NCBI GenBank assembly: GCA_963754655.1
Contig: CAVWGN010000001.1
Coordinates: forward strand, 512,001 to 576,000
Length of the DNA: 64,000 nucleotides
Source: an uncultured Chlamydiae bacterium
Lineage (GTDB): Bacteria; Chlamydiota; Chlamydiia; Chlamydiales; Parachlamydiaceae
Direction: 5' to 3'
In this document: positions 19,175-29,874 of the stretch, piece after piece
Position numbering within the stretch: position 1 is the first letter of the stretch
How the letters are laid out: every line of letters begins with the position of its first letter
Position numbers and translations under genes: made by a program
Notes under the pieces: generated by a model
Databases searched by the model: none
Seen by the model: only the letters and a program-made list of their open reading frames with translations
What the model was told of the DNA's origin: nothing

Positions 19175-19212
19175 TAATTGAAAAACTCCATCTTAATCCT
19201 CATTCGTGCTTA

Positions 19213-19378
19213 GAGTTTATATTTTTAGCAGATCGATAAGAAATGGTAGGGCGGCGGTAGCCACTTGCAGTGGGAAGCCCCGCATTCCGTTCGCAAGCTC
19301 GCTTCATACGGGGCTTCCCACTGAAAGCGGCTACCGCCGCCCTACCATTTCTTATCGATCTGCTAAAAATATAAACTC
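19213..19378. repeat. 166-bp palindrome with GTAG-REP-like core (family H)
   Basis: GAGTTTATATTTTTAGCAGATCGATAAGAAATGGTAGGGCGGCGGTAGCC...GGCTACCGCCGCCCTACCATTTCTTATCGATCTGCTAAAAATATAAACTC. Confidence 0.9.
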
Positions 19379-19485
19379 CCAGATTTAATCACACACCCGT
19401 TACATGGTTTAAGAAAATTTCATTCAATGAATTCTTTCCATTTGTGTATACTTTGAGGAAATCCTCAATTTTGGATCATTTCAAG

Positions 19486-21036
19486 ATGCCAATCATTTCC
19501 TTTCACTCTTTGCTGACTAAGCGTTTGCTGCTTTTACTTGCTGCCAAAGCCTTTATTCTCATAGCTATCATTGTCTATGCTGGAATTGAATTAGGTCCAG
19601 ACGAAGCGCAGTATTGGACATGGAGCCAGGCTTTGGATTGGGGGTATTACAGCAAACCACCTGGTATTGCTTGGCAGATTTGGTTGGGCACCCAATTATT
19701 TGGTCAAACAGAAGGGGGAGTGCGTTCGCTCACGGTTCTATTAGCCTTTTTTCAAGCTTGGGCCATTTATCAAGTGGCTTTAAAAGCAGGATTATTACCA
19801 CGAACAGCCTTTTGGTGCGGCCTATTCATGGCACTTTCCCCTCTAGGCATTTTGGGATCCTTTTTTGCTATTACTGATGTGGGATTTCTTCTCTGTTGGA
19901 CGGGAGCTTGTCTCAGTGTTGTTTCAGCTCTCCATCAAAAGCAAGAACCTCATCCCTTCATCATAGGAGGGTGGGTGATGGCAGGCGCTTTGTTTAAATG
20001 GCCTATCTATTTCTTTTGGATTTTCTTTTGTTTGGGCCGCTATTGGTATTTTCCTCAACAAAAAAGAAGTTCTATTTTGGGAGGAATTTTGCTGTCTTTA
20101 GTGGGGTTACTTCCCAGCGTTTGGTGGAATTGGTCACATGATTGGGCAACGTTTCGTCATGTTTTGGCTACTCTTCAAGGAGGAAGTGGACAACGATCAA
20201 CTGGCAACCTAGTAGAATTTTTGGGCTCTCAGGCAATGCTCTTATCGCCTGTCCTTTTTATTCTGCTGATGTGTGGACTTTGGCAGTGGCTGTGTCAAAA
20301 AAAACATTTAACTCCGGCTTTATATTTTTGTGGATTTGTGACACTCGTCAGTTTAGGTTGTGCAGTTTTCCTCTCTTGTTTCCAAAAAATCCAAGGCAAT
20401 TGGATCATTCTTGCTTATCCTACGGGCTTAGTTATTCTTGGATGGGACTCTTTTCAAAACTCTTCCTTAAGAGCTTGGTGGGCAAAAATGGGAGTTGGAT
20501 TATCTGTAATTTTAACTTCTTTATTTTTCTTTTTTCCCTCTTTTTATACTGTTCCAAATCTTGTTTCTTACACCCCCTCTTATCGATTCAATCCTTTTAA
20601 GCATAATCTGGGTTGGACAATGCTGCAAAACGCTCTTACTAGTCAGGGTTATGATCCCCATAAGCACTTTCTGGTAAGCGATAAATATCAAACAACGAGT
20701 ATTTTAAGTTTTTATGGAGAGGGTCAGCGCCGTGCTTATTTTCTCAATCTTCAAGGTGCGCGTCACAATCAATTCTCTTATTGGCCAAGTTTGCAGGAGG
20801 AACAGCAAGAAAAGACAGGGTATTTTGTCTGGATAGAAAACATGCCTCATCTAGAACGTCATTGGCAAGCAAAATTCAATTTTTATCAAAGCGAGCTTCA
20901 GCACTATTTTGAAGAGGTAGAGTTTTTAGAATTGGCTCCATTGGTCTACGAAGGACCCTCTATTGCTAAGGGGGCATTGATCTTCCGCTGTCATCGGTGC
21001 AAGAATTTCTATCCCGCTCATTCTCAACTTTATTAA
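19486..21036 (+). CDS. GT-C fold glycosyltransferase (family 39/ArnT-like)
   Basis: PDEAQYWTWSQALDWGYYSKPPGIAW motif and many TM helices. Start (ATG 19486) uncertain. Confidence 0.88.
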   Translation: MPIISFHSLLTKRLLLLLAAKAFILIAIIVYAGIELGPDEAQYWTWSQALDWGYYSKPPGIAWQIWLGTQLFGQTEGGVRSLTVLLAFFQAWAIYQVALKAGLLPRTAFWCGLFMALSPLGILGSFFAITDVGFLLCWTGACLSVVSALHQKQEPHPFIIGGWVMAGALFKWPIYFFWIFFCLGRYWYFPQQKRSSILGGILLSLVGLLPSVWWNWSHDWATFRHVLATLQGGSGQRSTGNLVEFLGSQAMLLSPVLFILLMCGLWQWLCQKKHLTPALYFCGFVTLVSLGCAVFLSCFQKIQGNWIILAYPTGLVILGWDSFQNSSLRAWWAKMGVGLSVILTSLFFFFPSFYTVPNLVSYTPSYRFNPFKHNLGWTMLQNALTSQGYDPHKHFLVSDKYQTTSILSFYGEGQRRAYFLNLQGARHNQFSYWPSLQEEQQEKTGYFVWIENMPHLERHWQAKFNFYQSELQHYFEEVEFLELAPLVYEGPSIAKGALIFRCHRCKNFYPAHSQLY

Positions 21037-21375: not shown

Positions 21376-23190
21376 TTAACCTTGAATATCGCTTTGATAT
21401 CTATGAATATTAAACTCTGCAATCAAATAGGGTGAAAAATAGGGAGGGGAAAGATAATTTTTTATTCCCCATTCAGGATGAATGAATAAAATTCCTTGTT
21501 CACCCATTTTCATTAAAGGAAAGCTAACGCGAAATGCTTTTATCGTACGATTCAAGTCCAAGATAGCACCTGCTTGATGGTCCTCAATTATATTTCCATA
21601 AATTGTTTTCAAAGTATATGAAACTCGAATCAATTGATCTTTAGATATATTTGCTCCTGTGCCTGGAATTATTGGTTGATAATAAAGACGATTTTTCTCT
21701 AAACACTTGATCTCAGAATTTGGTTTATTCTCTAGCTTCTGAAAGTGAGAAATTGCTAGAGATTTTTCATGATCATCAATACCTTCAAAAATTTGTTGAT
21801 AAATAAGAGGAAGAATAGTTGATAATTGATTTGATAGAATTAAATCAACTTTAGTCTTTTGCATAACTTCTAAGTGATGAATAACCGAAGATAATGAAAT
21901 CAATCCCTTATTGAATTTGTAATAACTCCATATTTTGAAACCAGTTAAGAAAGCCTGATCATGAAAAGACAGAGGATCTTCGGCTCTATGCAAAAAAGAA
22001 GTAACGTAATGGGCATCAATTTTTTTCTCGGCTTCTTGCATTCCTTTAATTAATTCCGAAAATTTATTTATTTTCTCATCCTCAAATTCATCATTAAAAC
22101 GATTAAAAATAGCTTGAGCAATGACCTGGGGAAAATCCATTTCACGATTTATATAAAAGATGTCTTTTACTAATTCATTTTCACTGAAAATTTTTACAGG
22201 TTCTCCATAAAAGTGAGACAAAATTTGCTCAAGCCATTGCGAGTGATCTAACATGTTGATAATTTTCAATTGAGTTTCTTGATAAGAGTTGATCAATACA
22301 TATGAAGAATTAGAGCGATCGATAGCTTTTCCAAAAATCAATTTTGGAGAATAATTTTCAAGAGCGTCTGAGGCAATATCTATTTTATCACTGATAGCAT
22401 TAAGTTCTTGCGCTAAAGAAGAATAACCTAAACTGGGTTGTATAGGGAAATTTTCAAAAGGTGGCATAAATTTTTTATTGTTCTTGCCTTTAAAGACAAT
22501 GAAATCATCGAAAGATAAAGAAGATTGTTTACAGATTTTTGAAGAATCTAAAATTTCTAGAATTTGCTCAAAACGACCCACATATAAAGAATTTTCCAAT
22601 CCAAAGCCCAGTAAAATTCCTATCAAAATATTATCATTTTTAAAAAAAGAAAAGAAATCTTGTTGGCTATTTTTTATCTCCCTTAACAATTTATCAGCCG
22701 TTAATTCTGGCCCCAAGGCATAACGAAAAAGAAGAGAGTGATTAGAAAATACTTTGTGAAATGCCTTTTTATTAATAAAAATAATATGTGAATGAGGTTT
22801 CTCATGTTCATCAGAAGTTTCCTTTATGAGAAAAATAAATTCGGAAGTTTCGGAAGGAAGAGACAATTTTTTCCAAATTCGTACACCTTCAGCTATAGAT
22901 GTAGAGAGATGATGCGTCATTTTCCCACTGAAATCAATATGGCCTATACTATAAGGTTCAATACAAATAGGTTTTTCCCCATATAAAACGTATCCAACCT
23001 CGGATCCCCAAAGAATTGCATGGAAAAATTCAGTAAGAGATTTCTTATCTCTTTCTGATAAAGTAATTACTAAATCAGCCTTCCCAAAAAGGGGTTTTAA
23101 ACAAAAAATAAAAGATAAAAAAATTATCAAGCAATTATGCAATTGTTTGAAAGCTTTAAAATGAAGGTTTAATTTTTCCAGATAGAACAT
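21376..23190 (-). CDS. Exported uncharacterised protein (YGEKP / GILLGFG domain) fused to a C-terminal FKBP-type (Mip-like) PPIase domain
   Basis: N-half paralogous to 26252-27163. C-terminus LYYQPIIPGTG...IRVSYTLKT...FPLMKMGEQGILFIHPEWG is FKBP-like. Confidence 0.75.
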   Translation of the reverse strand: MFYLEKLNLHFKAFKQLHNCLIIFLSFIFCLKPLFGKADLVITLSERDKKSLTEFFHAILWGSEVGYVLYGEKPICIEPYSIGHIDFSGKMTHHLSTSIAEGVRIWKKLSLPSETSEFIFLIKETSDEHEKPHSHIIFINKKAFHKVFSNHSLLFRYALGPELTADKLLREIKNSQQDFFSFFKNDNILIGILLGFGLENSLYVGRFEQILEILDSSKICKQSSLSFDDFIVFKGKNNKKFMPPFENFPIQPSLGYSSLAQELNAISDKIDIASDALENYSPKLIFGKAIDRSNSSYVLINSYQETQLKIINMLDHSQWLEQILSHFYGEPVKIFSENELVKDIFYINREMDFPQVIAQAIFNRFNDEFEDEKINKFSELIKGMQEAEKKIDAHYVTSFLHRAEDPLSFHDQAFLTGFKIWSYYKFNKGLISLSSVIHHLEVMQKTKVDLILSNQLSTILPLIYQQIFEGIDDHEKSLAISHFQKLENKPNSEIKCLEKNRLYYQPIIPGTGANISKDQLIRVSYTLKTIYGNIIEDHQAGAILDLNRTIKAFRVSFPLMKMGEQGILFIHPEWGIKNYLSPPYFSPYLIAEFNIHRYQSDIQG

Positions 23191-23227
23191 AATATTTAAT
23201 ATTTAGATTTTAATTGTTTATTTAGGC

Positions 23228-23479
23228 TTAGCGTCTTAGTGGGCATTTACAGCGATATGGGCATCTATTGCGAGGATTACAGCCCTCACAAGTTGGACAA
23301 TAAACAACATGCCCACACTCTGGATCCTTATATGTAACGATGAGACATAAGCCATCTTGTAACCAAGTTAAGTTTTTAACTGGAACTAATCCAAGATTCT
23401 CCAAATTCACAAAAATTCCTTCATTTGATATGACAATGAACGATTTGGTGTCAATATCTGAGGGAAGAGTCTTATGCAC
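23228..23479 (-). CDS. Small protein with Cys-rich C-terminus; 5' end uncertain, possibly disrupted
   Basis: EGIFVNLENLGLVPV core and CGHVVYCPTCEGCNPRNRCPYRCKCP tail. Similar to 25931-26125. Confidence 0.65.
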   Translation of the reverse strand: MHKTLPSDIDTKSFIVISNEGIFVNLENLGLVPVKNLTWLQDGLCLIVTYKDPECGHVVYCPTCEGCNPRNRCPYRCKCPLRR

Positions 23480-23661
23480 TAATATTGCACGGGTCTGTGC
23501 GGGGAGATGTAAGTAACCTTCATTCCTACCGTGACCGGATGATTCAAAAATTTGAGCCTTTGATCAAAACATTCCATGATTGAACTCAGGCATGTGCATA
23601 AAATGAGTTGCATTAGCTTTATGCGTAGGAGCCTGAAGGGCTCTAAATTGAAATAGCCCAG

Positions 23662-24060
23662 GGTTAGGGTGTTCATTTTGTGCAAAAATGAGCTTTATTT
23701 TTCACAATAATTGGCATAGTTGAATTGAAGGTCGCATGTTTATGCCGTCCTTTCAGGACTCGATGTCTTTTTGATAGAACCCAGGCCTCCGCTTCGCTGC
23801 GACCTGGGCTGTAACATGACGGCCCTTCAGGACTTAACAAGAGATGTTTAAGTCCCTCTTCTATAGTCCCTAAATCATCTTTTGTTAGGCCTGAAGGGCC
23901 GTCATGTTACAGCCCAGGTCGCAGCGAAGCGGAGGCCTGGGTTCTATCAAAAAGACATCGAGTCCTGAAAGGACGGCATAAACATGCGACCTTCAATTCA
24001 ACTATGCCAATTATTGTGAAAAATAAGGCTCATTTTTTGCACAAAATGAACACCCTAGCC
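23662..24060. repeat. Palindromic element family B, copy 2
   Basis: Near-identical to 512-916. Flanked by CCAG on both sides (23658-23661, 24061-24064). Confidence 0.95.
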
Positions 24061-24067
24061 CCAGGAT

Positions 24068-25911
24068 GGGATGAGAAAACGAGGGCTAAAAACCGATTTT
24101 TACACAGCTAAAATCGCTAACGGTTCTGGTTCCAATTTATTTGATTTTATAGTAAGTTCAATGACATCTGAATTTACTTTGCCCAAACTCAAAACTTCTT
24201 TTCGTTTTGCTAAATCCGTTTTGCCAATCCATGTTTCTTCCCATTCCTCCAACATTTCGACTGACACCGTTTCTAAAGCCTCTTGTAAGATATCACAATT
24301 ATTTTCCCCAACCATTCCTGCAAGACTTAGGATACTTTTAGTTATACTAGATGTCGCTTTGGTTCTCTCTACTATTATTTTCTGTCTTCCTATCAAAGAC
24401 TCTATTCCTTCGCTGCTTCCCACTAACACCTGTCCCTTGGATAGCACTCTACCTTCCTGTTTCAAAAAATAAAAAATCTCTTTTGCCAAATGTAGTGCTT
24501 CTGGTTTCAAACTTCTAAAGTGAAGTCTTGCTTTAAGAAAAAAAGTCGCATAGCTTCGTCTATGAAGACCTTCAGTTCTTACTAAATGCCTTGCCAAACG
24601 AATGATTTCTATCATCTGAGCATATTTTTCAATGACTTCTTCGAAATCGACTATCCAACCAGCTTTATCTTTTAATCTATTTATATCTAAATGGGGAATC
24701 GTCTCTTGCATTTGAAGAAGGTTTAAAATATCTTGTAGCCAATCAATTAAAATATCAGCATTCATGAATCGCGCTTTTTCTCTTTGTTTGGGAGGGCTCA
24801 AAAAAGCCTCTGGACTCTGTTTTGTCTTTTGTTTTGTATCTGTAATCAATTGAATTATGTGTTTCCAAGTATCATCTTTTTCCAGTTCCTTTTTTAATAG
24901 AATTGCTAGTTTATGGACCACATCATAGGTGTTTATTGTTTTTTCATGGTTTTGGCAATATAGTCTTACACCTTTATTTACATCACTGCCATGATCTGCC
25001 ACTATCTGCAGAAATGGGCCAATTTTTTCCGATATTTCTTCTAAAACATGCGCAACTTTTTCACCAGTTGATGAATTCATGGGTTGTAGCGCTAGTGGTT
25101 GGAAATCTTCATGATGAATATCAAAGCTGCCCCTTTTTTCAAACTTACTTTGTAATGTACTTAATTGAACTCCAAGAACTATTAAGCACTTTTGGTAACC
25201 AGCTTGAACTTTAAAATCAACAAGGATAATCCAATCTGAAGCCTTTTCCTTAGCCTTTATAAGCTTGTAAAGCCCATATCGTAAAAACCACAATTCGACG
25301 CTTTTCCATGAAGGCTGGAAATTGAAATATTTAAATATTGGAATGTTACAACTCTGCATGGAGATGAAAATTCGCTGAATCGCTCTAAATGCTATTGCAG
25401 CTAATGCAAGTGAAATCACAAAAAATATAAATAATATAGGATATTGATGTCGAGCGACCCTTCGATTGTTGCTAATTTCTTGCTCAATTATTGCACAAGC
25501 TTTTTTTTTAATTCATCAATTTGCTTGTCTTTGATTTTACTTTTCTCTTCCACCTCTTCTAATCTCGACTGAAGGCATTTTATCTGTTTGTTTAATGCCA
25601 AGATATTATCTTGTTCCTTTTGTAGCCTTTCTCCTAATCGTTTCTTATCAGTCATTAGAGCTTGAATCTTAGTTCTTTTTTCTGCGTTTCTTTGCTTCCA
25701 TTCATCACGACTTTCCTGGTAATGCTTCACTTGTTTACGTATATCTGAAGGACGCTCATGCTTTTGAGTGCTTTTTGAATCCATTTTATGCCTCATCTAA
25801 TTTTGAGCAATCAATTATAAAAGCCTCTTTTTAAAAAGCCAAGCGAATTTAAAATAGGAGGAAAAGCGTTCTAATAATTAGTTGTTAAATATTTTTTTGT
25901 TTTCTCATCCC
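24068..25911 (-). mobile_element. Insertion sequence, probably Mutator-like (IS256/ISLre2/ISKra4-related), 1844 bp
   Basis: TIRs GGGATGAGAAAAC / GTTTTCTCATCCC. 11-bp TSD AGCCCCAGGAT at 24057-24067 and 25912-25922. Confidence 0.9.
24100..25796 (-). CDS. DDE transposase in two ORFs (25488-25796 coiled coil, 24100-25419 catalytic) joinable by a -1 shift at A9G
   Basis: Motifs ILVD, VADHGSD, YDVVHKLA (DxxH), GSSEGIESLIG. The -1 frame from TTAAAAAAAAAG (25500-25511) is open into ORF2. Confidence 0.8.
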
Positions 25912-25930
25912 AGCCCCAGGATCGGTTTAT

Positions 25931-26125
25931 GTGGCTCCTGATGCCATTTATGTCAATATAGATGGGAATTTTGTTCCTGTTAATAGCGTCAAGATCGATG
26001 AAAATGGAGTTTATGTTGAGGGATTACAGACTGGTTGTATGGTTCATTGTGCAAGATGTGGCCAAACCTATGATCGGGAAAAATATACTGCGAGATGTCC
26101 TCACGATAAACCAAAGTATAGATAG
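25931..26125 (+). pseudogene. 5'-truncated small Cys-rich protein, paralog of 23228-23479
   Basis: Frame reads LAPGSVYVAPDAIYVNIDGNFVPV through the TSD back to the B element end, so the N-terminus is missing. Tail CMVHCARC...RCPH. Confidence 0.6.
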
Positions 26126-26251
26126 ATTTCAACTGTAGACTTAAATACGTTGGTGAAGAATTTGATGAGAATCGCTAGCTTCTCATCAATTCATTATTAA
26201 AGTTCATTGTTGTTTTTTTTATACCAATCTTCACATATTTTTTTTCCTGCT

Positions 26252-27163
26252 ATGTCAAATTCAATATTTCGCCTTCTCTTTTTTATATCATTTGTTTTTT
26301 TGATCCAATCCACTCTCTTTGCTAAGGTTGACTATTTGGAAAGAAAACAAAAACTACAGCAACAGTTGAATGCCATCCCTAAAGCAGATATTCAAGATAT
26401 TAAATTTTTATTTCATCATCTCTTTTATTTTCATGAAATTGGCTCTACTTTATTTGGAGATAAACCAGTATCGTTTTGTCAACCTGAATTCATTAACAGC
26501 TATGCAGAACTAGAAGTACATCAAGATATATATAGTTATTCTCAATCTATATTAAAACCAAGTAAGAATTATAAAAAAGAGTGGTTAATTTGGGAGAAAA
26601 ACAAGCACGTATTTGAAATTAAAAAATTTGTTATCGTTAGAGAAAGTCTCGGTGTTCTGTTATTGAACAAAGAAAATGTAAAAGATGTTGTAATTAAAAA
26701 CCGCGATATTTTTCATTCTATCATAAAAAACTTCGACGTAAATGAGTTCATAGAAAACGTTAAAAAAGGAAAGGGAGCGTTTGACTTGCTAGCAAGAAAT
26801 CATGAACTTTTTGGCATCCTACTGGGTTTTGGAGAATATAACTCACATCTTTTTCAAAGGTGCGAAGATCTTAATCCTTACGAGATTCCTGTGAATCTTA
26901 GAATTAAAATTCCTCCTTCTCCAGGATATAATTCAATTCAAAGCGAATTAGAGGATTTATCCCAAAAATTATGCAGTTTCAATGAATATGAGCGATGCTT
27001 TCCTCTTGTCACCTTTAATCGAGTCATATTTGCCACTGATCCTAACCATCCAGAAACAATTTTTCTTAGAAAGAAATATGAGGCTCAAAGGAAGAAAATT
27101 CATCAGATTCTTAATCGGGAAGATTGGTTTGAACAAATTCTTCTGCGATTGACTTCTGAATAA
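26252..27163 (+). CDS. Exported uncharacterised protein (LFGDKP / GILLGFG domain)
   Basis: Signal peptide from ATG 26252. Motifs LFGDKPVSF, HELFGILLGFGEYNS and PSPGYNSIQSEL shared with 21376-23190. Confidence 0.8.
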   Translation: MSNSIFRLLFFISFVFLIQSTLFAKVDYLERKQKLQQQLNAIPKADIQDIKFLFHHLFYFHEIGSTLFGDKPVSFCQPEFINSYAELEVHQDIYSYSQSILKPSKNYKKEWLIWEKNKHVFEIKKFVIVRESLGVLLLNKENVKDVVIKNRDIFHSIIKNFDVNEFIENVKKGKGAFDLLARNHELFGILLGFGEYNSHLFQRCEDLNPYEIPVNLRIKIPPSPGYNSIQSELEDLSQKLCSFNEYERCFPLVTFNRVIFATDPNHPETIFLRKKYEAQRKKIHQILNREDWFEQILLRLTSE

Positions 27164-27286: not shown

Positions 27287-27994
27287 TTACACGCAAGTGA
27301 CGACCTTGCGATGAGGCAGAGAAGCAATTTGCTCAATTTCGTTTATTTCTTTTTCCACTAAATTAAAATGATGGCTTAACTGTTCAACTAATTGATCTTG
27401 AAACAGTTCTGGATGGGGCCAATAGTCTCGCAAACGGCATAAAAACTCGGCATGCGAACGTCCTTGTCGATAAGCAGGCGTTTTAGGTGGCATGGCTAAG
27501 TAATCCATATATTCAAGACAATAATCCCAAAGCAGCGAACTATGATGCAGCCAACGTCCTCTAACAATGGACTGTGCATTGCCTCCCCATTTTCGCTCGT
27601 CTATTGCATAGTCGTTTTCCTGCAGCTGAAAGGAATGCAAAGAAAATAAAGGTCGATAAAGTGTTGCTGTCCATTGCATGAGAGGGCGAGGAAAAGGAGA
27701 AATGGGAAGAGCATCTGCTTGACAAATCAAAGTGACAAATAAGGTATTCTCATCCACAACAACTGTTCCTCCTCCGCTAAAACGGCGGATGAGAGGAATA
27801 GGCGCTTGCTCGAGTTTTGCTTGGTGGATCAAGTGCTGCACTTGTCCTGAGATTCCCATCACAATGGCTGGAGGCGATCCTTGATTGAAAATGCACCAAT
27901 TACGTGTATCAGCGCGTAAGAGAGCTTCTTCCCATTGTAATTGCTGGAGAATGGGAATAGAGGCCAATTTAATCAGATTTAATACTGGTTTCAT
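27287..27994 (-). CDS. lplA: Lipoate-protein ligase A family protein
   Basis: Motifs EEALLR, RRFSGGGTVVVD, ENDY, KWGGNAQ. ATGA overlap with the mnmG stop. Confidence 0.88.
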   Translation of the reverse strand: MKPVLNLIKLASIPILQQLQWEEALLRADTRNWCIFNQGSPPAIVMGISGQVQHLIHQAKLEQAPIPLIRRFSGGGTVVVDENTLFVTLICQADALPISPFPRPLMQWTATLYRPLFSLHSFQLQENDYAIDERKWGGNAQSIVRGRWLHHSSLLWDYCLEYMDYLAMPPKTPAYRQGRSHAEFLCRLRDYWPHPELFQDQLVEQLSHHFNLVEKEINEIEQIASLPHRKVVTCV

Positions 27995-29874
27995 GGACAA
28001 TCGTCGCAAACTGAAGAAGAGCTTGTCTCTTCGCTTTGCGGCTTTCTTGTTTTGTTGCGCATTAAGGCAATCATTAAAATAGAAATATCAGCAGGTGAAA
28101 CACCGGAAATGCGTTGTGCTTGTCCCACTGTTCGAGGAGCAAATTTAGCCAGTTTTTGGCGAGCCTCGTTGCGCAAGCTCTGAACGCTTGAATAATCAAA
28201 GTCAGGCGGAATGAGAATATTTTCGACATGAGCAAGCTTAGCGACTTCCTGGGTTTGCCGATCAATATAACCCGCATACTTGAGAGTGAGCTCAATTTGG
28301 AAGTTAGTTTCCTCCCCAAAATCTTGAATGACATCAGGATAAGCCTGAAGTAAAGAAGCATAGGTATTTTCTGGGCGGCATAAAAGCTGAGCGATCGAAT
28401 AGCCTTTGCCATTGACTTGCTTGTAAATTTTATGCAATCGCTGGCTTTCCTCTTCCATGATTCGTTTTTTATTGCAAACGCGCTGGTAGCGTGTGGCATC
28501 AATGAGTCCTGCCTCATAGCCATAGTGGCGTAAGCGCAAATCGGCATTATCTTGCCTAAGGAGAAGGCGGTGCTCGGCCCGGCTGGTAAACATACGATAG
28601 GGCTCATCTAATCCTTTGGTGACAAGATCATCAATCATGACTCCAATATATGCTTCTGAGCGTTGTAGAATAAGAGGCGGCTTGCCCATTACTTTGTAGG
28701 CAGCATTGATTCCTGCCATCAGGCCTTGCCCAGCTGCTTCTTCATAGCCTGAAGTTCCATTGATTTGTCCAGCTAAAAATAATCCTTCAATGGTTTTGCA
28801 TTCTAAAGAGGAATGGAGCTGCCCGCTCACGACATAATCGTATTCAATTGCATAGGCTGGACGCATGATTTCGGCATTGCGCAAAGCAGGAATGCTATGA
28901 ATAAAGCTCAATTGAACGTCAAAGGGGAGAGAAGAAGAGACTCCATTCACGTAAACTTCTTGGGTATTGAGCCCTTCAGGCTCTAAGAAAATCTGATGAC
29001 GTTCTTTGTCTGCAAATCGTACGATCTTGTCTTCAATGGAAGGACAATAACGAGGGCCAATTCCTTTAATTTTTCCCGAATACATGGGCGAGCGATGGAT
29101 ATTGGATAAAATGATCTTCTTTGTTTCTTCCGTTGTATAGGTAATGTGGCATGAGACTTGAGGCAGGCGAGGAATTTCCTCGTCGTCATAGGAAAATTTT
29201 ACTCCAGGCTCACCCGGCTGTTCTTCTGTGTAGCTATAATCGATAGAGCGTTTATTCACTCGGGGGGGAGTCCCCGTTTTAAGACGTCCTAATTTGAGGC
29301 CATATTTTTCTAAACTGGCAGACATTCCGATTGAAGGCTGGTCTCCCGCCCTTCCACCAGAGTAATTGGTCTCTCCAATATGCAGGAGCCCGCGAAGAAA
29401 AGTCCCTGATGACAAGATAACGGCTTGGCCATCGTAGGCAATACCCTCTTTGGTTAGAACACCTATGACGCGATCTTGATGAACAATTAAATCCTCAATC
29501 GTTCCCTGTTTAATTTCTAGATGCGAAGTTTTTTCTAAGCGATGTTTCATTTCTATTTGATAGGCCCATTTATCTGCTTGCGCTCGAGGAGCCCAAACGG
29601 CAGGTCCTTTGGTGGCATTGAGCATGCGATACTGGATTCCCGTCATATCAATGACTTTACCCATTTCGCCCCCTAAGGCATCAATCTCGCGTACCATATG
29701 CCCTTTGGCAATTCCACCTATAGCAGGATTGCAGCTCATTTTGGCAATTGTATCTAAATTCATCGTTAATAAGAGGGTGCGCAATCCCATGCGAGCAGAG
29801 GCTAAAGCAGCTTCACAGCCAGCATGTCCTCCTCCAATGACGATGACGTCGTAAGGGGTGGGAAATTTCCACAT
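27991..29874 (-). CDS. mnmG: tRNA uridine-5-carboxymethylaminomethyl synthesis enzyme MnmG (GidA)
   Basis: Motifs GGGHAGCEAA, MSCNPAIGG, RLKTGTPPR, GPRYCPSIEDK, AGQINGTSGYEEAA. Confidence 0.98.
   Translation of the reverse strand: MWKFPTPYDVIVIGGGHAGCEAALASARMGLRTLLLTMNLDTIAKMSCNPAIGGIAKGHMVREIDALGGEMGKVIDMTGIQYRMLNATKGPAVWAPRAQADKWAYQIEMKHRLEKTSHLEIKQGTIEDLIVHQDRVIGVLTKEGIAYDGQAVILSSGTFLRGLLHIGETNYSGGRAGDQPSIGMSASLEKYGLKLGRLKTGTPPRVNKRSIDYSYTEEQPGEPGVKFSYDDEEIPRLPQVSCHITYTTEETKKIILSNIHRSPMYSGKIKGIGPRYCPSIEDKIVRFADKERHQIFLEPEGLNTQEVYVNGVSSSLPFDVQLSFIHSIPALRNAEIMRPAYAIEYDYVVSGQLHSSLECKTIEGLFLAGQINGTSGYEEAAGQGLMAGINAAYKVMGKPPLILQRSEAYIGVMIDDLVTKGLDEPYRMFTSRAEHRLLLRQDNADLRLRHYGYEAGLIDATRYQRVCNKKRIMEEESQRLHKIYKQVNGKGYSIAQLLCRPENTYASLLQAYPDVIQDFGEETNFQIELTLKYAGYIDRQTQEVAKLAHVENILIPPDFDYSSVQSLRNEARQKLAKFAPRTVGQAQRISGVSPADISILMIALMRNKTRKPQSEETSSSSVCDDCP

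Follow-up and report, generated by a model that had tools for sequence, protein, structure and literature searches.

Two divergent gene pairs lie between positions 21376 and 27163 of a 64,000-nucleotide stretch (the window) from the genome of an uncultured Chlamydiae bacterium of the Parachlamydiaceae (contig CAVWGN010000001.1, positions 512,001–576,000), and in each of them a gene for a small, cysteine-rich protein stands upstream of a gene for a larger partner. We find these pairs to be copies of a conserved cassette of two genes, sometimes three, which is specific to the non-Chlamydiaceae members of the phylum Chlamydiota and whose partners are inherited together. An undescribed protein system with a constant part, a variable tail and a dedicated partner had been proposed in the initial annotation of this region, and the conserved two-gene module described here bears that proposal out. 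Despite its wide spread, the large family is unnamed, lacks a family model and resembles none of the solved structures with which it was compared. As to what the cassette does, we tentatively favour a reading in which the small protein is a Sec-exported client and the large protein its helper, the pair working with a prolyl isomerase of the Mip type.

The two cassettes of the window

The genes of the two pairs, and the block of large A that resembles an FKBP domain, are as follows.

21376–23190, reverse strand: large A, an open reading frame (ORF) of 604 residues; long form; matches the large-family profile with E = 1.5e-75
21391–21678, reverse strand: FKBP-like block of large A (approximately residues 505–600)
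23228–23479, reverse strand: small A remnant, 83 residues from a GTG codon; part of the β-domain and an eight-cysteine tail, without a signal peptide
25916–26125, forward strand: small B remnant, ORF of 64 residues from the GTG at 25931; β-domain and a Cys3-His tail, without a signal peptide
26207–27163, forward strand: large B, 318 residues from a TTG codon; short form; matches the large-family profile with E = 2.5e-100

All four genes are thus where the initial annotation had placed them, in two divergent pairs with the small gene upstream of the large gene. Judged by sequence, large A and large B are paralogues: residues 21–330 of the former align with residues 23–318 of the latter in BLASTP (58.2 bits, E = 1e-13, 23% identity). 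The direct match between small A and small B is weak (21.6 bits, E = 3e-4), and they are assigned to one family because the family profile matches both, with E = 4.3e-25 for small B and E = 3.8e-8 for small A in a search of the 35,206 stop-to-stop frames of the whole genome. The kinship of the two large genes, their hydrophobic N-termini, the common core of the small genes and the unrelated nature of their cysteine-rich tails, all read from the two pairs in the initial annotation, are upheld by these matches and by the family-wide results given below.

Large A comprises a hydrophobic N-terminus, the family domain (residues ∼38–330), a helical linker and, near the C-terminus, a degenerate FKBP-like domain. 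It is 64% identical to a 590-residue orthologue (P0137) and is collinear with this protein and with the other long forms. In large B, an alternative start at the ATG at 26252 would give a typical signal peptide. Searches of all four window proteins against Pfam and NCBIfam assigned no family, the sole match being a subthreshold one to FKBP_C in large A, and PADLOC gave no family at E ≤ 0.01 for any of these four proteins or for the L005 pair of the same genome.

Pairing and distribution of the two families

The genome contains seven genes of the large family. A small-family profile built from 49 small-family proteins matches only five of the genome frames at E ≤ 4e-8, and each of the five lies directly upstream of a large-family gene. 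The sixth large gene has a weak match to this profile (E = 0.11) directly upstream, in which the RanBP2-like tail alone is kept and the 5′ part is replaced by a repeat; the seventh (L008) has an insertion sequence (IS) upstream.

Loci in other genomes were drawn from relatives, from named records of metagenome-assembled genomes and from 40 chosen regions (28 with short forms and 12 with long forms), the last being the first-listed near-full matches for which upstream sequence was available. After dropping five duplicate loci or fragments, 74 large genes remained; two are at contig edges and 72 were scored. The adjacency is consistent: a small ORF is found directly upstream on the same strand for 52 of the 72, upstream in divergent orientation for four and downstream in convergent orientation for one, while 15 have no match to the small profile. 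Four of these 15 have diverged cysteine-rich ORFs upstream, as judged by eye. The distances between the reading frames of the small and large genes are mostly −50 to +75 nt. Across 57 pairs, the distances within the small family correlate with those within the large family (Spearman coefficient 0.278, with none of 999 permutations as high), so that each pair has been passed on, and duplicated, as one unit. This co-divergence attests to a common history and not necessarily to physical contact. The pairing of the two genes is the rule and not a coincidence.

A check of co-occurrence and copy number with family profiles had been proposed in the initial annotation; besides the adjacency, it shows that 130 of the 300 genomes searched from the phylum carry the large family, many of them with two to eight matches. 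In a search of 1.84 billion proteins the large-family profile matches 2079 cluster representatives at E ≤ 0.001, and 774 still match at the stricter limit of E ≤ 1e-30. The family is present in 12 of 41 near relatives, in none of three other species of the same genus and in none of the 29 genomes of family f20, which are 1.0–1.2 Mb in size. Eighteen named records carry it: 11 are titled Chlamydiae, Parachlamydiales, Parachlamydiaceae, Parachlamydia, Chlamydiales or Rhabdochlamydia, and the others are labelled ‘uncultured Verrucomicrobiae’ (five), ‘Verrucomicrobia bacterium’ (one) and ‘uncultured bacterium’ (one). The 76 relatives found in a word-indexed search are, without exception, nameless or called ‘hypothetical protein’, and nine database relatives that were looked up individually have neither a name nor an accession. 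Cassettes are often found near integrases, a group II intron or IS elements.

Among the papers listed on cysteine-rich, FKBP and periplasmic proteins of the Parachlamydiaceae, neither family is described in a title or abstract, and RanBP2 is absent from the literature that we found on eukaryotic-like proteins of amoeba-associated chlamydiae. A term search of PMC4209131 gave no occurrence of ‘FKBP’, ‘zinc’ or ‘signal peptide’.

The small protein and its variable tail

Intact members of the small family have 90–130 residues and consist of a hydrophobic N-terminus (in 40 of 48 sequences), a conserved region that looks β-rich and a short tail. The conserved region is ∼45 residues long and has the consensus ‘K.YV.PG.VYVAP..IYVN..G.F.PV..I..D..G.Y’, with repeated ‘YV.P’ motifs and ‘D..G.Y(V/I)’ at its end. 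The initial annotation had read the common core of the two small genes as the conserved leader of a ribosomally synthesized and post-translationally modified peptide (RiPP); the intact relatives, which start with a Sec-type signal peptide followed by this β-rich domain, argue against such a leader.

At least three cysteines are present in the last 45 residues of 52 of 57 small proteins, and 49 of these 52 tails contain a CxxC motif. The number of cysteines is odd in 17 of the 52 tails, 16 of which also contain histidine. A Cys-Pro dipeptide occurs in 38 of the 52 tails, compared with a mean of 12.6 and a maximum of 24 after shuffling. The pairing of an isomerase domain with a proline-rich tail, to which the initial annotation had drawn attention, agrees loosely with this enrichment, but the enrichment is seen in all tail types and not only in the partners of FKBP-containing forms.

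Ten of the 57 small proteins contain the pattern W-x-C-x(2,4)-C-x3-N-x6-C-x2-C, which we take to be the spacing of RanBP2-like fingers. Weak matches to Pfam zinc-ribbon families were obtained among the 49 members searched: DZR in five, zf-C2HC_2 with E = 3e-5 and Zn_ribbon_RanBP in one (E = 2.8e-4). In the window, the RanBP2-type pattern (PF00641) is found in the tail of neither small A nor small B, and the RanBP2-like tail is thus one type among several. Small B ends in C-x2-C...C-x-H, and small A in the eight-cysteine arrangement ‘C.GH...C..C.GC...C..RC.C’, a type that also accompanies other long forms. The type of tail follows the clade of the large partner. Though very diverse in type, the tails conform to the logic of a metal site, and the tail looks like a single zinc knuckle or ribbon, which may be of the CCHC, CCCH, CCCC/RanBP2-like or 6–8-Cys kind.

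At a locus of one relative (L049:1021–2055, genome G089) a RanBP2-like small-gene tail is in frame with the large gene, and the front of that small gene is read in a different one; the arrangement reflects either a frameshift in the small gene or a natural fusion.

The large protein: conservation, fold and a chimeric paralogue

The N-terminus is hydrophobic in 120 of 140 large-family sequences, compared with eight of 142 for an internal control stretch, and both partners look as if they are exported by a Sec-type route. The family domain is ∼270 residues long. Across 143 sequences (large B numbering), Lys86, in the motif ‘GDKP’, and Gly203, Gly207 and Gly209 are 100% conserved, followed by Asn212 (99%), Tyr291 (96%), Glu283 (94%) and Asn154 (92%); Asp278 is also near-invariant. 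No cysteine, serine or histidine is conserved across the same 143 sequences. The invariant residues are kept in the long forms too.

A first AlphaFold2 (AF2) model of large B that included the N-terminus had a mean predicted local distance difference test score (pLDDT) of 77.1 and gave only long-helix matches, to residues 1–57; the mature domain was therefore refolded. The model of residues 52–318 has a pLDDT of 90.5 and a predicted template modelling score (pTM) of 0.88. The Foldseek comparison that the initial annotation had suggested for the partner matched no known fold or function in the PDB (best E = 1.1). VIA-align found none of 48,161 representative chains with Z ≥ 5, the best matches, at Z = 3.2, being 8odu_C, with a root-mean-square deviation (r.m.s.d.) of 7.5 over 108 residues, and 2guk_B (r.m.s.d. 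of 4.5 over 103 residues). The zinc-finger cysteine methyltransferase NleE came third in the structure search, with Z = 2.8 and an r.m.s.d. of 5.0 over 105 residues, which is at the level of noise, and we rejected it. Searching PDB sequences with the family profile gave one chance match (E = 0.91). Going by the predicted model, the fold of the large domain may be new.

Two domains of unknown function were considered, and neither gains support from its Pfam model. DUF4504 (PF14953) is a putative lead from language-model features, with scores of 0.92 and 0.88; across 200 genomes of the phylum its Pfam model matched nothing at E ≤ 0.001, its sole match in this genome is an unrelated ORF, it is carried by none of the 76 database relatives and it is mentioned in no paper of the literature search. 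DUF3793 (PF12672), of which the GILLGFG motif had seemed a faint echo in the initial annotation, matches two of the 143 members weakly (best E = 0.0072), and this genome contains no match to its model at E ≤ 1; the resemblance is not supported.

The L008 paralogue (L008:1492–2721, G000:C1:2300809–2302038) is a chimera: the signal peptide and first ∼70 residues of the family, which extend to YTLFGDKPITLSG, are followed by a PARG catalytic domain of the microbial type (PF10021, 30.3 bits). Its sequence suggests that the N-terminal module of the large family is separable.

Link to Mip-type prolyl isomerases

A domain resembling peptidyl-prolyl isomerases (PPIases) had been noticed in large A. Taken alone, this block does not reach the Pfam threshold: its match to FKBP_C (PF00254), over residues 515–578, scores 13.8 bits (E = 0.074) and the gathering cut-off is 21.1 bits. 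The assignment holds by collinearity, as large A can be aligned with the long forms L026, L020, L027, L029 and P0134 over the full length of the FKBP block, in which their FKBP_C match is above the cut-off (43.7, 47.2, 33.8, 24.1 and 48.0 bits, respectively). The consensus of the FKBP signature, ‘TIPGFA.G..GMK.GE.R.L.IHP..GYG’, is changed to TIKAFRVSFPLMKMGEQGILFIHPEWGIK in large A. Collinear homology together with the altered signature suggests that the block is derived from an FKBP domain and that its activity is doubtful.

The long forms have ∼580–750 residues and end in a helical stretch followed by FKBP_C, whereas the short forms are without an FKBP domain. Directly downstream of the short forms L040 and L045 is a separate gene encoding FKBP_N and FKBP_C. 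The short form L015 is directly followed by a separate Mip-like gene, recognized with our own FKBP profile, and a weaker match lies downstream of L030. A tree of 79 large domains groups all 18 long forms in one clade of 20 rows, with a Shimodaira–Hasegawa-like approximate likelihood-ratio (SH-aLRT) support of 99; L015 is also in this clade, and L040, L045 and L030 are outside it. The tree requires at least three changes of form, compared with 16.4 in shuffles. Large A is placed in the long-form clade as the sister of L077 (79% identity). Fusion in some lineages and adjacency in others, as seen here for the large domain and Mip-type prolyl isomerases, is the classic sign of a functional link.

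Damage by mobile DNA

The DNA between the two small genes of the window is occupied by three elements.

23525–23662, repeat of ∼139 bp abutting the 5′ side of small A; five further high-scoring segment pairs (HSPs) in the genome, 93–97% identity
23654–24062, palindromic repeat of ∼410 bp resembling a miniature inverted-repeat transposable element (MITE); 88 near-full HSPs in the genome, counting both orientations
24060–25920, reverse strand: IS of ∼1.86 kb with ORFs of 439 residues (24100–25419) and 102 residues (25488–25796)

The small genes of the window lack a signal peptide because both are truncated at their 5′ ends at the borders of mobile or repeated DNA (∼23525–25920), which the initial annotation had missed. 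A BLASTN search of positions 23400–26000 against the genome showed that all of the DNA between the two small genes is repeated. Small A is 78% identical to residues 47–115 of its closest database relative, the 116-residue P0200, the N-terminus of which is hydrophobic; small B is 82% identical to residues 32–104 of its closest relative, the 104-residue P0164, which starts with a signal peptide. The missing N-terminal parts (residues 1–46 of P0200 and the start of P0164) were found nowhere in the genome with tblastn. Upstream of small A the frame is non-hydrophobic and meets the repeat at 23525; small B is cut by the right end of the IS, and its in-frame upstream codons lead without a break into the end of the element. 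Mobile DNA has therefore taken the place of the divergent promoter region and of the coding ends for both signal peptides. As the signal-peptide codons and the common upstream region have been lost to the IS, the MITE-like element and the further repeat, both window cassettes are probably decaying, although both large genes are intact.

The IS is present in ten near-full genomic copies including that of the window, with 97.6–100% identity and with ends at 24054–24067 and 25914–25920 in window coordinates; a similar terminal sequence, GTTTTCTCATCCCA, is found at both ends. Its 439-residue protein has no Pfam, NCBIfam or PADLOC family and may represent an undescribed transposase family, and the 102-residue protein is a coiled coil without a Pfam family. 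A long inverted repeat is visible in the sequence of the MITE-like element. The HSPs of this element are spread over the chromosome and a second contig, and at least at two other places (C1:69953–72238 and C1:2340150–2342442) it is joined to the IS as one unit. Copies of the IS also adjoin three other cassettes of the genome (L003, L005 and L008). A short repeat with the translation ‘...SSLHTGLPTESGYRRPTISYRSAKNINSQI’ is present at 19206–19388 and at L004:2640–2798, beside the L004 cassette, where it now stands in place of the 5′ portion of a small gene. The L002 cassette (G000:C1:2541135–2545013) is bracketed by two nearly identical ORFs of 150 residues in direct orientation, presumably resembling REP-associated (repetitive extragenic palindromic) or IS200-type tyrosine transposases, and a protein rich in leucine-rich repeats is encoded near it.

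Other features of the window

The remaining features near the cassettes are a possible terminator and two ordinary flanking genes.

26162–26189, forward strand: terminator-like hairpin with a 10 bp stem, between small B and large B
19444–21036, PMT_2 glycosyltransferase gene
27287–28009, lipoate-protein ligase gene

The scan that includes this hairpin found six terminator-like hairpins against 3.8 expected. A promoter scan gave sites that are rarer than in shuffled sequence (16 versus 22.6).

Proposed function and alternatives

In the reading that we tentatively favour, the first gene of the cassette would encode a small Sec-exported protein with a signal peptide, a β-rich domain and a variable Cys/His tail, and the second gene, tightly coupled downstream, would provide the exported ∼270-residue domain. 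Once exported, the large protein would bind its cognate small protein through the conserved domain of the latter. A Mip-type FKBP, which is fused to the large protein in the long forms and encoded by a neighbouring gene in some short forms, would join it in helping the Cys-Pro-rich tail to fold or to take up metal, or in helping the small protein to assemble. The small protein with its tail would then be the functional output and might be aimed at the envelope or the host. The initial annotation had left open whether the partner is a maturase or a chaperone; the repeated fusion and adjacency with Mip-type FKBPs favour a chaperone, whereas a RiPP maturase loses ground for the reasons given below.

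Several observations weigh against a client and its helper. Between 11 and 15 of the 72 scored large genes have no recognizable small gene beside them, among them four to seven of the 16 long forms with upstream sequence (a 17th, L016, is at a contig edge); the large protein may therefore work alone. The invariant polar residues and the glycine-rich motif are less typical of a general chaperone than of an enzyme or a ligand-binding site. In large A itself the FKBP block is degenerate, the signal peptides of both families were called from hydrophobicity alone, and zinc sites built from cysteines are unusual in the oxidizing periplasm. Prediction of a complex of large B (residues 52–318) with small B (72 residues), each with its own alignment, scored 0.01 against a mark of 0.32, with an uncertain fold for small B; we count this neither for nor against binding.

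Some of these points suit a different division of labour, in which the large protein would be an enzyme that is exported, with the small protein serving as its substrate, targeting subunit or inhibitor, so that the pair is a binary secreted effector or an envelope enzyme. The polymorphic zinc-finger tail, of the eukaryote-like RanBP2 type in some copies, would then supply the binding specificity, possibly for a host molecule. The invariant Lys86, Asn212 and Gly203-x3-Gly207-x-Gly209 and the near-invariant Asn154, Glu283, Tyr291 and Asp278 favour an enzyme, the RanBP2-like pattern in 10 of 57 small proteins and the one match to Zn_ribbon_RanBP (E = 2.8e-4) are in keeping with such a role for the tail, and the PARG fusion of L008 indicates that the N-terminal module can carry another enzyme. 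The family also has a patchy distribution, multiple copies and mobile DNA at its flanks, a combination usually seen in genes for host interaction. Searches of Pfam, NCBIfam and the PDB, however, gave no similarity to any enzyme family or fold; no cysteine, serine or histidine nucleophile is conserved, the periplasm is without ATP or S-adenosylmethionine, there is no sign that the proteins pass beyond it and the FKBP link is left unexplained. We regard an enzyme as rather unlikely, while keeping it as the main rival.

A bolder form of the client-and-helper reading would make the cassettes a mobile, family-expanded ‘zinc-finger display’ of environmental chlamydiae. An exported protein of novel fold and Mip would mature and present small proteins with interchangeable tails, including tails of the eukaryotic RanBP2/NZF type. 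Outside the cytoplasm, these small proteins would target the host or the redox state of the envelope during development, with a different specificity for each cassette. We consider this unlikely as a whole.

The small proteins could instead be structural cysteine-rich envelope proteins that, like OmcA in the Chlamydiaceae, form disulfide cross-links in the infectious stage, with the large protein and Mip as assembly factors. The order of a cysteine-rich exported small protein and then a large one loosely recalls omcA–omcB, both proteins look exported, Mip is an envelope protein in chlamydiae and the f20 genomes, in which the family was not found (none of 29), might use other proteins for the role. 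On the other side, neither protein matches a chlamydial cysteine-rich envelope family in Pfam at E ≤ 0.1, the large protein has no conserved cysteine (the L005 copy has none at all), and tails with three cysteines and a histidine (16 of the 17 odd-cysteine tails contain histidine) fit a metal site better than disulfides. Carriage by only ∼43% of the genomes of the phylum is also too patchy for a core part of the envelope, and we find this role improbable.

Still less probable is a polymorphic toxin–immunity or bacteriocin-like pair, another option of the initial annotation, in which one protein harms competitors or the host and the other neutralizes it. The tight coupling with the small gene upstream, as in many antitoxin–toxin and immunity pairs, the variable tail on a constant body and the multiple copies beside IS elements, integrases and a group II intron would suit it; Pfam, NCBIfam and PADLOC detected no toxin, immunity or defence family, both partners have signal-like N-termini, the variable part amounts to only ∼25–40 residues with zinc-ribbon patterns and no toxin domain, and the FKBP link would again be unexplained. 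A RiPP-like system, in which the large protein would be a maturase that modifies the tail of the small protein, its precursor peptide, is very hard to credit: the constant N-terminal and variable C-terminal parts beside a dedicated neighbour, and a chance-level L_biotic_typeA match in one of 143 large members (E = 0.021), are outweighed by intact small proteins of 90–130 residues with a Sec-type signal and a folded-looking β-domain in place of a short leader, by a partner that also looks exported, by finding no RiPP enzyme, recognition element or leader protease in the proteins or in 37 neighbouring ORFs of 12 loci, and by transporters being limited to one ABC transporter at one of the 12 loci scanned.

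Mip is a virulence-associated prolyl isomerase of chlamydiae and Legionella, and to our knowledge its natural clients are poorly known. If the large protein is indeed a helper that works with Mip, the cassettes could show what Mip-type enzymes act on in chlamydiae, and they could represent a new class of host-interaction or envelope proteins in the amoeba-associated members of the phylum. The steady pairing with a zinc-finger-like exported protein and the repeated link to Mip offer a testable point of entry to the family.

Comparison with known systems

OmcA and OmcB of the Chlamydiaceae also have a small cysteine-rich exported protein encoded directly upstream of a larger exported protein. 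The present proteins show no Pfam similarity to that pair, however, the large partner is not cysteine-rich and none of the 29 f20 genomes searched yielded the family. The finger spacing in many small-protein tails is like that of RanBP2/NZF fingers and of other single zinc ribbons or knuckles (Zn_ribbon_RanBP, DZR and zf-C2HC_2), but here the tails end a bacterial protein that bears a signal peptide, and those of the window are of the eight-cysteine and CCCH types.

A dedicated helper encoded beside its client is familiar from the lipase–Lif foldase system, and a PPIase joined to a client-binding module from chaperones of the SurA and trigger-factor type; duplication as units is a further likeness. 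The differences are that no relation in sequence or fold was found, that the client here is tiny and that its binding is putative. A further comparison is with the periplasmic FKBP prolyl isomerase-chaperones of the Mip/FkpA type (FKBP_N + FKBP_C). Neither Mip nor FkpA has anything that corresponds to the ∼270-residue domain preceding the FKBP part, the short forms have no FKBP domain and the block of large A is under the Pfam cut-off. The long forms nevertheless end, as these chaperones do, in a helical stretch and FKBP_C, some short forms have a complete FKBP_N + FKBP_C gene directly downstream, and all of these proteins look exported.

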